Shown piece after piece: positions 17,045 to 47,989 of a DNA stretch of 64,000 nucleotides. The position numbers and the translations under genes are program-made. Each line of letters opens with the position of its first letter. Position 1 is the stretch's first letter. The notes beneath the pieces were generated by a model. The model was not told the origin of the DNA. It saw only the letters and a list, made by a program, of their open reading frames with translations, and did no database searches. The stretch comes from Stylophora pistillata (lineage: Eukaryota). Where the stretch lies: NCBI RefSeq assembly GCF_002571385.2, contig NW_019218252.1:66181-130180 (forward strand). The letters run 5' to 3'.

Positions 17045-17316
17045 ACCGAGGGGACGAGGTAATTTAGTATTATCAACCGAGTTGATAATGTGAAATAGCA
17101 ATCGTAAAAAGTTTCTGAGTTGACGTTTCGGGCGTTAGCCCTTTGTCAGAGAGAATGGGGAAATTATGGGTTGTGTGTTTCCGATACTTTTGGTGGGAAC
17201 ATGGTTAAGAGGATGACAAGAAGAATTTAGTTAAATGAAAAGCGTTCCTTGATTCTGAAGGGATTACGAGTGCCGATTTTAAAGATAAATTTTTGTTCTG
17301 GAGTTTTGCAGCCTTC
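17045..17316 (-). mobile_element. Degenerate Penelope-like 3' end (family A relative) with mutated HHR at about 17119-17152
   Basis: Minus strand CTGACAAAGGGCTAACGCCCGAAACGTC, preceded by a frameshifted remnant of the same ORF end (...FIFKIGTRNPFRIKERFSFN*). Confidence 0.7.
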
Positions 17317-18405
17317 AAAAAAGCCCAGAAATGGTGACCAGGGACTGCTTACGCGTGTAAATATTTATCATGATGAGATTGTGGAACGAGTCCCGCCTGC
17401 TTCTTGAGCCTTTTAGCCTCAGTCGTGGCACAGTTCTAGGTCTGTTAGCTTCATAAGCAGTACTAGGCACGCCATAAATACGATGGTAATTCAGTTTAAC
17501 TGCGATTTCGCCGAGACTGATGAACTTCGGTTTTTATAACAAAGCGAACTACATGAACGCGGTCAAACTAAGTTCCGTTGTAGCAATTCTGTCTTACCGC
17601 AAGAACACGACCTTGAAACGTAATAGCCATTAGCACTTTTCTTTCAACCGGTGTAACTTTAGTTGATGATGTGGAGGGGTTAAATACAGGGCGTAAAAGC
17701 ATTTGTAAAAGTTTTTCGGTTGGGAAAAGAATTCAAAACAGTGAGGACTCAGTTCCCACTTTCCAGTAGCACCGTGGGAACTTTTCGTATGTTTCAATAT
17801 TTTTATTCCCGGTTTTAAACAAGTTAAAGCAACAGCTCTCCTCAGACTTAAGGGTTAAATAGCCGTTTGCGGAGAGTTTTCATTTCATGTCTGCCTTGAA
17901 ACAATCTCCTTGAAGAATCGTTTTATAGTGGCAATCAGATTCAGTTGGGCATATTCCCACGCTTCCGACACCTGGTTTTATTTCAAGTAAACAGCAGACC
18001 ACTAACGCTTGCAGTTTCGCGACCATTCCCGGACTTTTCCGACGAACCTTCGGATTCATGAAATCGTAAACGCCCCTGAAAGTCCACCTACATACAAAAA
18101 TTCACCAAAAAAAGGCACATCTCCAAACAAATCATATACAATGTCACAGCCAAAATATACCCTAATTCCACATAAATCTAAAACAGAACCAGGATATTTT
18201 AATAGTTCACGCCTCAGTAACATCATTGAATGAGATTTAAAAGTTACACCACAGACCGCAAATTACAAAGACAGGGAGGGAGGGAGGAGTGGGACTGGGA
18301 GAATTAGGTTCCAGGCCCCACGCCTACGAATAAAAAAGTTTCAATGTTAGATAAAGCCTAAATTTGTTAAATCTAGTTTTACAAAATGTTTGAAGGGACC
18401 ACAGT

Positions 18406-20231
18406 TTAAAGTTCATCTTTCTGTTTCTTGTCTTTCTTCTTCTTCTTTTTCTCTTTCTTCTCGGGAACTTCAAATGGATTCGTAGCTTCACGTTTTAGAT
18501 ATTCAATGAAAGAATCTAAATCTCGCGCGCTGTCGTATTTTCTAGGCGTCTTCTTGCTGTTCATTGGTGAAAAATAAATTGTTGGAAAACTGCAAAGAAA
18601 AGATGACACGAAACATTAAACGTTGCTAAACTGTTTCTAACTTGTGCACAGTGAGGTAAGTCTGTTACGTTATACAAAGTTTCTTCGTACATTTTAGCAT
18701 AAAAAGGCTAACCGCCATAACAGCAACTCTTTAACACATAATGTAACACGCTGCCGGGAGAAACAAAACAACCACATAACGAGAAAACGAATGAGCGCAC
18801 GAACGAAAAACCGAACGAGCAAACGAGCGAATAAGCGGAGGGAAAGCAAGCGAATGAGCGAATAAGCGAACAAGTGAGCAAATGAGCGAACGAGAAGCGA
18901 GCAAACTAGCGAATGAGAAAACGAGCGAAAGAGAAGCGAGCAAACGAGCAAATGAACAAACAAGCAAACAGGCATACGAACGAACGAGTCACAAAAAAAT
19001 CGTACGGACGAACCAACGTCTCTAAATGCATTTTAGAGACCAAAGGAAAAACAGAAACAAGGAAGTAGACTCTTTCAGTAAAATCAGCAAACAGGCACTA
19101 GCCGGTTGTCTCGGCATTCAACTCACCCGCGAACTTCGTAAGGTGACGGTGCATCATTTGCTGTGGCATCCATCTTAGCTATAACTATGTCTTTTACGTC
19201 AGCCAGCTAAAAAGAAACGTAAATTTCTTTCTTTAAAACATTCTTTTTACTAAAGAAAATTTGACTTTCAAAATTCCATGTAGTGATGTGACTGACCTTC
19301 TCTCCTAATTCTTTGTAGACTGGTTCCAAACTCTTACAATGGCCGCACCATGGAGCGTAGAACTCGATCAAAACATCCTTTGTTTCATCGTTAACAATCT
19401 CGTTGAAAGTCTTGCCAACGACAACCTACAAGAAAAATCAATTAATAAATAAGCATATAAAATAAAAGACAACATCAACAAACATACAGTCGAACCTTAA
19501 TTAAACGTTCACCCATGGGGAATGGAGGGGTGACCGCTAAACACAGGTTGACGACTCGTACAATTTCCTCAGAATAGGGGTATTGTAAAAATAAAAATAA
19601 ATAAAAAATAATAATAAAAAACCATACGAAACGCAGTTTTAAACCAGAATTGACCACTTTTAATACAAAAACTTGCTAAAAATTACTGCAGACATTGATT
19701 TCGGGATATAAACAGAGATCAAATTTCACTTAAAAGATTATTCTTAGGATCACAAGAGTAAAGGTCCTGGGAGTAAAGGAAATGATCATCGACTAAACAA
19801 GCTCTTGATTGTTTAACACATTCTCCTTATCCGCACCCAAGGAAAGGTATAGAGAACAGTATGGAGAATATGCATACTGATGATGGGATGAAAAGGGTTA
19901 AGTGACCGTTCAGTGCAGGTGGAGGGCAAGAAAAAGAGGTTTGGACCCAGTAAAGGATCACCACCACCGCTTTATGGAGGTCGGTGAAAATTACAAAATA
20001 ATTTGGATATATCAACAAAGTTGAAATGGTAAATTGGCCACCGTAATGATTACAAAAGCTGACGTTTCGAGCGTTAGCCCTTCGTCGGAGCGAATAGAGG
20101 AATTGTGGGTTGTGTGTGCTTTTAAAGGCAGAAAATGGAGCTACGTTATTGGTGGGAGCATGGCAACGAGAAAAACATGAATAAATTAGTGGAATGAAAA
20201 AGATAAATAAATTTATTATTATTATTGTTAT

Positions 20232-20264
<33 letters not shown>

Positions 20265-46184: not shown

Positions 46185-46304
46185 AGTGAATAAAGGCTGA
46201 TAGTTTCGAAAGAAACTGTTTGGGGCTGTGTCAGTGGGAGTAACGAAATAATTTGGATATATCAACAAAGTTGAAATGATAAGTTGGCCACTGTAACGAT
46301 TACA

Positions 46305-46337
<33 letters not shown>

Positions 46338-46430
46338 TCACTCCGATGAAGGGCTAACGCTCGAAACGTCAGCTTTTGTAATCGTTATGGTGGCCAATTT
46401 ATCATTTCAACTTTGTTGATATATCCAAAT
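46185..46430. mobile_element. Palindromic Penelope-like pLTR remnant (family A) with two opposed HHR motifs
   Basis: Inverted arms about 46248-46336 and 46344-46433. Plus-strand CCGATGAAGGGCTAACGCTCGAAACGTCAGC at 46342-46373. 14-bp duplication TATGAGTTTATTTA at 46171-46184 and 46431-46444. Same terminal extension as the element at 30221. Confidence 0.85.
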
Positions 46431-47989
46431 TATGAGTTTATTTAGGCTTGGATGAAGACAGAATTTCTCTTTACAATACCAAGCAGACTAGTGATGAGGA
46501 AAAAAAACAAAAACTCAACTACTACTATCTTCATTGAAATTGCATGGTAGACAGTGGAGAGCTCAAGATTTAGTAATGAAAGACTAGGAGCTAAAGGGTG
46601 ATGTAAATGGTTAAACTTTCAGTTTTTCCAACCTTTCTTAAAGGATAAGTTGTCTGGTTGACAAAAATAAGTGTGTCTCCTATCTCTGAAATATATTTAA
46701 AAGTATTTAAATACTTGGTTTGTAAGTGAGTGTACGAAAATTCTGAGTTGGTACTAAAGAAAATATGATCATTAAAATGTCTGATTTCTAAAACAACATT
46801 GTAGCATTTCTTGGCATCTGAATAACCTCACAGCAGGCTTCCACAGGAACTATTTAAAGCACTAGCATGGAAGCTTATAAGGAAGAGCAAGCTGGCAGAC
46901 TGTGCTGGAATGTTGCCTGTGCCTGACTATCCAGTAGTTCATTCATAGCTTCAACAATTGTGCTCAGCCCAACACCAAGTGGAGGCTCATTTCACACTGG
47001 TCTGAACAGCCCATGCCTTCATCTTCTCTACTTATCCTTCAGTTTGTTGCACCATAGGCACAAAAAAATATCTATATAAAAATATATTAACCAATTTAGG
47101 AGTAGCCACTTGTACGATTTCCAAACACCACTCTTTCTTCCTTGATACCAAAGTCCAGCGGCAGAATCATCATTCCTGTATGTTCTCTCTCTTGACTAAT
47201 GGCCCTTTTGACCTTTTATTTGTTGTTCTTTATCTGGAGTGGTAAATACTTTGAAAACCCAAAATCCCTGAGTCCAACATTAAGGAAATAAACCTTTTTT
47301 TTAAAATTTTACCCTGTCTGTACAGCTTATTGCATTTCATAATTAAATAACCCAGAAGATTATTAGGTTTTTAATTTACTGCATGTGTATCTAGGATACT
47401 TCTGCTGGAGTTTACCCTAGTGAACATATATTAAGGCTTGGTGTACAATTTTCAGTGGTGTTTTTGGTGAGTTAAACTACTGTAGAGGAAAGTTTTCACA
47501 ACTCATCTCTCTATGTACAACTTACAACTCCAGCATACCATTAAGTCACCATCAGGAAGTCTATTTTTAGAATGTTGACTGCATCGTAAATTCATCTTAC
47601 ATTTAAATACACTGTACCATTTATTTTATCAGAAATACAGGATACAAGAGCTGCCACATGTAGGCAGACCATGAAGCAAACTCCATAAATGATCAGAGTT
47701 GGATAATTTTCTTGCGCTGCAGTTGCCATAGAACTATGTGCTAGCCTACAGACATGGAAATCTTGCATTAGAACATTACAATTTGGTCGATGTAAAAACG
47801 TATCGTGCAGAGTTAATACACGAAAGAACAATATGATAAGACAGCTAATCGTGTAAAACACATTGGACTTACCTTTGTAAAGAAGCTGCAGTCTGTAATA
47901 ACTCGATTTCTGCTTGCACATCGATCGAAAAGATATTAAGTAACAGGTATTTTAGTGTCAGCTGAAAGCCGAGGGACAATACAAGAAGC

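Follow-up and report, generated by a model that had tools for sequence, protein, structure and literature searches.

The genome of the stony coral Stylophora pistillata contains, in a 64,000-nucleotide stretch of contig NW_019218252.1 (positions 66,181 to 130,180; hereafter the window), a cluster of short motifs resembling hammerhead ribozymes, and the question raised by this locus is which elements carry them and how these were inserted. DNA of the window is also present in runs labelled coral metagenome, and its repeats agree with coral motifs in the literature. A preliminary description, made from the sequence, sorted the motifs into families A to D and a retrozyme family; each of the motifs that it listed is present where it was placed. 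The window contains 15 hammerhead-like motifs (8 of family A, 2 of B, 2 of C, 1 of D and 2 retrozyme) spread over ten insertions (Table 1). These are very probably 5'-truncated insertions of four families of Penelope-like elements (PLEs) with minimal hammerheads in their terminal repeats, plus one retrozyme without long terminal repeats (non-LTR), the paired copies likely having originated through cutting and priming on both target strands.

A relaxed minimal-hammerhead descriptor gave six matches in the window, as against a mean of 0.03 (maximum 1) over 60 dinucleotide shuffles. A strict canonical descriptor recovered no window motif and its one-mismatch version only one, because the copies present here are decayed or variant. 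No fully canonical, intact ribozyme exists among the window copies, and only those at 20058 (A) and 24816 (C) match the majority sequence of their family exactly; the window copies are decayed passengers. An Rfam scan of the window produced no hammerhead match at E<=1, the predicted monomer folds were no more stable than those of shuffled sequences (z from -1.4 to 0), and one end of the retrozyme adjoins a fold-back and an assembly gap, all of which could be expected if the motifs and repeats were chance hairpins or assembly artefacts. This explanation can hardly be right. Exact-pattern searches of the 397.6-Mb genome yielded 3,809 motifs of family A, 1,138 of B, 173 of C and 90 of D, while the reversed-pattern controls yielded none; family A agrees with a published coral motif; and contigs from another sample run into the elements at identical junctions. 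Except at the right edge of the window's retrozyme copy, chance and artefact are already refuted.

All five families are genome-wide repeats. The states of the catalytic core were counted by eye in 100 listed exact matches each for A, B and C and in all 90 for D. Among these matches, family A possessed C at position 4 (C4) in 89 cases and U4 in 11, and the core of family B was canonical in all 100. Family C read UUGAAGA in 89, UUGAAAA in 9 and CUGAAGA in 2, which corresponds to U.G, U-A and C-G, respectively, at positions 3-8, and family D read UUGACAA in 90 of 90. The consistency of these counts within each family indicates that the variant cores are family states, and decay of single copies is ruled out as their source. 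The sequence canonical for the core (C3 U4 G A N G8 A9 ... GAAA ... UH) is found in B and in the retrozyme; A (mostly U4C), C (U3.G8) and D (U3-A8) depart from it. Stem II with its G10.1-C11.1 pair, a palindromic stem III and stem I, the last of just 2 bp in C and D, are present in the family majorities, the stem II pairs being intact in 91% of cells across families.

The preliminary description had suggested that the cores of C and D might be undescribed; this does not hold, since UUGAAGA is recorded for a PLE-associated motif of Saccoglossus and U3-A8 for Schistosoma in the supplement of PMC4209133, and the U3-A8 core is also known as natural and active (PMC3088659). Motifs with a 2-bp stem I also occur in the same 2014 alignment (PMC4209133), where the hammerheads in the terminal repeats of metazoan PLEs likewise display a short stem I, a bulged base after A9, the G10.1-C11.1 pair and a palindromic stem III. 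The U.G state of family C is possibly a wobble intermediate of a compensatory change. Its U3-A8 copies share one common subfamily background (11 copies, 6 from purposely fetched loci) with no private change, and a separate source element behind them is plausible.

The link to coding sequences was sought in the regions flanking the terminal repeats, long "open reading frames" (ORFs) consisting of N runs being discarded. For each of A to D a single ORF specifying a reverse transcriptase (RT) and then, C-terminally, a GIY-YIG endonuclease was observed directly upstream of the pseudo-long terminal repeat (pLTR). A same-strand ORF ended at a fixed distance upstream of the pLTR in 17 of 30 loci of family C (about 158 nt), 20 of 30 of D (about 100 nt) and 18 of 30 of B (about 179 nt). 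For family A an ORF lay upstream in all 30 loci, at 124 nt in 29, a count biased by a query which held the endonuclease. The family ORFs contain Pfam RVT_1 and/or GIY-YIG domains, several matches falling below the curated cut-off; in family C only the end of the RT and the endonuclease are contiguous, and the endonuclease of family D was detected by motif, not by Pfam. Where alignable, the ORFs of A to D are approximately 20-45% identical to one another, and the longest N-free frames have 659 (D) and 603 (A) amino acid residues. Families A to D are the pLTRs of four different RT/GIY-YIG PLEs, and the connection of each pLTR family to its own RT-GIY-YIG ORF, which the preliminary description had proposed as a check, is borne out for all four.

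A CX2-5CxxC linker preceding the endonuclease, which is a feature of Neptune and Nematis elements (PMC8557442), is present in A and was not seen in B, C or D. Assigned by this motif alone rather than from a tree, A would be of the Neptune/Nematis type and B, C and D of the linker-less Penelope/Poseidon type. Family D, in which GIY-YIG was not seen at first, was also considered as a Naiad-type element; this was ruled out, because the ORF has the RT first and ends in a variant of the endonuclease motif. In B, C and D the A9, the bulged U and G10.1 together read AUG (21185-21195(-), 24826-24829 and 23904-23907, respectively); in C and D a stop within loop II terminates the frame opened by this AUG, and a further AUG lies beyond. 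The ORF of an anole element, considered below, likewise begins at stem II.

Flanking direct repeats are present at six window insertions, as had been proposed, their length being 11-14 bp each and not 7-14 bp; no flanking duplication was found around the copies near 17.1, 20.0, 32.5 and 42.5 kb (best scores 4-6). In four of these six insertions the copies form an inverted pair extended on one side, while the family D insertion is solo and the retrozyme a tandem of 1.2 units, so that the inverted, one-tailed signature, which the preliminary description took as shared, is not common to all of them. The layout itself is a described Penelope structure (PMC8557442, PMC3846280). Genome-wide, a duplication score of at least 10 was obtained for 38 of 59 head-to-head pairs of A to D as against 3 of 966 cross-locus controls, most duplications having 10-15 bp; an earlier test with narrow bounds (15 of 31) had missed most A pairs and was redone with wider bounds and more loci. 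The 12-mer at the D insertion is single in 14 of 14 other loci of its host, an element resembling miniature inverted-repeat transposable elements (MITEs), and the target site in the host repeat of the C insertion is single in 4 loci and one window paralogue, locus L058 being left out of the comparison. The flanking duplications are true target-site duplications, and this part of the preliminary description stands.

Within each family the 3' ends are bimodal, the long and short ends lying about 121 and 58 nt past the site of cleavage in A, 100 and 68 in B, 60 and 26 in C, and 51 and 27 in D. A duplication score of at least 9 was reached by 40 pairs, each of which combines one long with one short end; in a subset of 29 pairs chosen purely by motif adjacency this applies to 21 of 21 with such a score. 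As to the 5' extents of the 40 pairs, the long-tailed arm is the longer in 14, the short-tailed arm in 20, and 6 have arms within 5 nt of each other; the two arms of a pair end at unrelated 5' points. Endonuclease-bearing (EN+) PLEs (PMC8557442, PMC3846280) have the same order of RT and C-terminal GIY-YIG, and likewise show 5' truncation, a head-to-head inverted copy, a tail at one end and a short duplication. Inverted pLTRs with a one-sided tail and an 8-10-bp duplication are documented in rotifers (PMC3846280). The coral copies differ in the duplications, mostly 10-15 bp as against 8-10 in rotifers, and in the tail, about 60 nt in family A as against 30-40.

The long-plus-short constitution of all duplicated pairs and their unrelated 5' truncations favour two cDNAs primed from both target strands. 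The enzyme of the element would cut the two strands approximately 10-15 bp apart, and from each staggered nick a separate cDNA would be primed. The two 3' ends would represent the two internal start sites of reverse transcription measured in vitro for the Anolis Poseidon element PAc (PMC11167929), each target strand would use one of these, and the two truncated cDNAs would then be joined head to head at their truncated ends. That each pair arose in this way, with one cDNA per start site, seems to us probable. In PAc the two strands of an AT-rich target are each cut and then extended, and reverse transcription begins at two internal sites whose spacing sets the tail (PMC11167929). The PAc hammerhead cleaves with protein only, and ribozyme mutants still insert (PMC11167929); the coral hammerheads, too, would need a dimer or the aid of a protein to cut.

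An inverted arm could also arise by fold-back, if the first cDNA, or else an antisense template, primed itself, the endonuclease trimming the tail later. Such fold-back was put forward from palindromic junctions (PMC3846280) and tail trimming in PMC8557442, and the six pairs with nearly coincident arm starts, as well as the near identity of many arms, are in keeping with it. The short-tailed arm, however, extends further 5' in half of the 40 pairs, sometimes by more than 500 nt, and therefore cannot have been copied from a portion of its partner; moreover, the purified anole enzyme extends both strands (PMC11167929). We regard fold-back as unlikely and retain the priming of two cDNAs from opposite strands.

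Several observations weigh against this account or against the elements as a whole being what we take them for. No duplication scoring at least 9 was found in 19 of the 59 pairs, and the other 8 of the 29 motif-adjacent pairs comprised, by raw ends, four long+short, three long+long and one short+short. Some pair junctions are short palindromes, as self-priming predicts. The anole enzyme in vitro uses its start sites alike on both strands (PMC11167929), so that the strict asymmetry is not by itself predicted, whereas genomic pairs in the coral are nearly always long+short. No orthologous empty alleles were seen on the contigs of three runs, a comparison of best rows only, with contigs breaking at repeats, and hence uninformative. 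RNA reads from three runs span family A motifs on both strands with no end pile-up at any cleavage site; the same holds for the anole element. No intact full-length element was recovered, most long copies being broken or entering N stretches, and covariation of the stems within families is essentially absent, because the copies are young.

The fifth family forms non-coding tandem arrays of 5-6 units of 244 bp, a length within the 150-450 bp of non-LTR retrozyme units, with a type I hammerhead, whose core was canonical in 44 of 54 parsed copies. Stony coral non-LTR retrozymes (PMC7229834) are similarly built of tandem units of about 225-245 bp with a canonical type I hammerhead; no parent pLTR was identified for the fifth family. 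Its loci are single-stranded in orientation (28 of 29 on one strand), without inverted pairs, and the flanks are TA-rich. No ORF was tied to the motif in 30 loci, and the hammerhead region matched none of the A to D loci. Non-LTR retrozymes are marked by abundant monomer RNA, circular and linear; RNA depth over the fifth family was about 8-56 per strand in the three RNA runs, which are probably unsuited to small circles. The proposal that Penelope-type RT/GIY-YIG proteins drive the whole mobilome is supported for A to D, each behind its own ORF, and extends only tentatively to the retrozyme, which has no inverted pairs and whose flanking repeats (8 of 29 loci as against 146 of 812 controls) do not rise above the control level. 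Animal retrozymes have been argued to derive from PLEs (bioRxiv 10.64898/2026.07.22.740005), and the coral family, which would prefer TA repeats, likely relies in trans on a putative enzyme borrowed from a PLE. Beside the assembly gap, at 38737-38818, is a short fold-back with an opposite-orientation fragment of the retrozyme hammerhead; this could be artefactual or could stem from an inverted arm that was lost.

The preliminary description overlooked the U4C core of the dominant A subfamily. The young A subfamily reads CCGACGA in 64 of 72 copies, 12 of which are identical to the majority across 170 nt; U4 copies (2 of 69) are as frequent in it as other CpG changes, and C4 is present in 7 of 8 ORF-bearing young A loci with a ribozyme. 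Among metagenome loci (80 of the 121 returned), whole record sets were uniform for one state or the other: all C4 in 26 of 26 and 5 of 5, and all U4 in 21 of 21, 11 of 11 and 12 of 12. A tree of 32 hand-picked pLTR rows, with the U4/C4 column masked, needed two changes (2-3 in bootstrap replicates), and a single C4 clade was rejected with an approximately unbiased (AU) p-value of 0.018 for an unrooted tree from a short alignment with one strongly supported branch. Position 4 thus appears to have switched at least twice in the family A tree. The Acropora digitifera PLE row in PMC4209133 agrees with family A in stems, loop and cleavage site and differs in having U4 where the dominant subfamily here has C4; a CCGA core was not seen in the portion of that alignment covered. 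A literature search found no report of U4C in PLEs; a 2017 paper on PLE variants and the supplement of PMC7229834, which lay outside that search, may contain one.

In vitro, U4C considerably lowers hammerhead activity, and a viroid with this variant remains infectious (PMC3088659). The core change of family A likely weakens self-cutting. For insertion, cleavage is probably weak or not needed, given that it was with U4C that the youngest and most numerous subfamily spread. A different possibility is that U4C is a trade and not a loss, in which it would weaken a misfolded rod between core and cleavage strand while protein-assisted cleavage still works and is selected. At the family A loci L316, L320, L027 and L294 the core (CUGACG) and the strand with the cleavage site (CGUCAG) are complementary, and the monomer is accordingly predicted to form an inactive rod, weakened by about 1 kcal/mol in C4. 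The predicted rod of U4 copies (-12.3 kcal/mol) excludes stem I, which the fold of C4 copies (-11.2 kcal/mol) keeps, the hammerhead shape having -7.0 kcal/mol. The repeated changes between U4 and C4, the uniformity of whole record sets for either state and the infectious viroid variant would all suit a trade. The energy gap is, however, just 1.1 kcal/mol, and neither form is predicted to adopt the hammerhead shape; the drop in activity in vitro speaks for a loss; and T-to-C transitions are common, a single master copy fixing whatever change it bears. We consider the trade rather doubtful, and weak or dispensable cleavage is preferred.

At 15 motifs per 64 kb the window is about five-fold denser than 40 fixed-position stretches, in which 18 motifs were found in 369,681 bases (3.1 per 64 kb), and none of 20,000 resampled 60-kb sets attained 15. 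A true insertion hotspot for ribozyme-bearing elements would account for this. The window was, however, selected afterwards from about 6,200 and itself served to define the families that were counted, for which reason a hotspot need not be invoked. The motifs are also paired, which reduces the real comparison to about 10 insertions against 2-3; copy ages differ widely (0 to 11 changes per 35 nt); and just 3 of the motifs in the window agree with the exact patterns used genome-wide, where about 0.8 are expected. A hotspot is accordingly improbable, and the cluster, though real and dense, is an unremarkable collection of known elements, of a kind usual in a stony coral; Acropora millepora has more than 6,000 hammerheads in 16 families (PMC7229834).

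The features of the window are collected in Table 1. Most insertions appear to be intronic in the gene of the thioredoxin-fold protein and in that with the PAS-like exon.

Table 1. Hammerhead motifs, insertions, host genes and other repeats of the window, with strand in brackets.
Feature	Position	Remarks
Family A hammerheads	17119-17153(-), 20058-20092(-), 30337-30371(-), 30887-30921(+), 46308-46342(-), 46339-46373(+)	
Family A relic hammerheads	32559-32593(-), 42532-42566(+)	
Family B hammerheads	21156-21198(-); partial copy ending at 21304(+)	21156-21198: core canonical, stem III palindrome broken; short (+) arm truncated within stem II
Family C hammerheads	24816-24855(+), 24762-24801(-)	U3.G8 core, 2-bp stem I, ACAUGU palindrome
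Family D hammerhead	23894-23934(+)	U3-A8 core; stem I of 2 bp; two changes due to decay
Retrozyme hammerheads	38460-38505(-); core-truncated copy starting 38701(-)	38460-38505: canonical core, G10.1-C11.1 pair lost; second motif cut within core
Old family-A-related PLE 3' fragment	17050..17340(-)	Last 37 endonuclease codons and pLTR; its hammerhead 17119-17153 is decayed (core CUGACAA); no evident duplication
Solo family A pLTR	19980..20200(-)	Hammerhead 20058-20092 equals family majority, its core being CCGACGA (U4C); adjoins TTA microsatellite; uncertain left edge
Family B head-to-head insertion	21058-21369	11-bp duplication 21047-21057, 21370-21380
MITE-like inverted-repeat element, host of D insertion	23672..24022	Other copies used as empty sites
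Family D solo pLTR	23829-23982(+)	12-bp duplication 23817-23828, 23983-23994
Family C head-to-head insertion	24739-24906	12-bp duplication 24727-24738, 24907-24918; within another short repeat
Family A head-to-head insertion	30221-30971 (with repeats 30207..30985)	14-bp duplication, 1 mismatch; (-) arm long-tailed with hammerhead 30337-30371, (+) arm short with hammerhead 30887-30921
C-terminal GIY-YIG endonuclease fragment of family A ORF	30468..30779(-)	PF01541, E 3e-05; 90% identity to younger copy
Highly decayed family A relic	32413..32593(-)	Tail-like part 32413-32504; hammerhead remnant 32559-32593, 11/35 changed
Non-LTR retrozyme	38444..38746(-)	About 1.2 units with a period of 241 bp; 12-bp TA-rich repeat (38444-38455, 38735-38746)
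Decayed family A relic	42532..42623(+)	10/35 changed
Family A head-to-head insertion	46185-46430	14-bp duplication 46171-46184, 46431-46444; (-) arm long-tailed, truncated within core; (+) arm hammerhead 46339-46373 with C4 core
Host gene, RGM family (Pfam)	7712-9637	
Host gene, thioredoxin-fold	~19300-31700(-)	Weak Pfam match
Host gene with PAS-like exon	~33000-46000(+)	Presumably ARNT-like
Host gene, ubiquitin hydrolase	~49950-53400	
Degenerate 8-bp repeat array	18778-18988	GAGCAAAC-like, about 14 copies
Two very high-copy repeats	27213-27534, 28333-28609	Read depth about that of family A in DNA and RNA runs
Inverted arms of a ~247-bp unit carrying a tRNA-like gene	55990-56625	274 nt, 96% complementary
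Rfam tRNA within these arms	56111-56183(-), 56483-56555(+)	
Further short MITE-like inverted-repeat elements	55820-55959, 29938-30093	Spurious microRNA-family matches below gathering score

The U4C subfamily and the near-strict pairing of long and short ends are modest additions to known elements. Taken further, they allow the tentative suggestion that coral PLEs repeatedly swapped U4 for C and that the C4 lineages became dominant as a damped ribozyme favours transposition, each inverted insertion recording an asymmetric enzyme dimer with the far start on one strand and the near start on the other. For the detection of such elements, descriptors fixed on CUGA would miss thousands of U4C motifs per genome. 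Young inverted insertions number in the thousands and have precise ends; they constitute a natural record of a poorly understood integration step, and this record can tell two-strand priming from fold-back. The U4 and C4 sister subfamilies provide matched pairs with which to ask if transposition benefits or suffers from cleavage by the PLE hammerhead, and family C, whose positions 3-8 are C-G, U.G or U-A, provides a further matched set for the same question.

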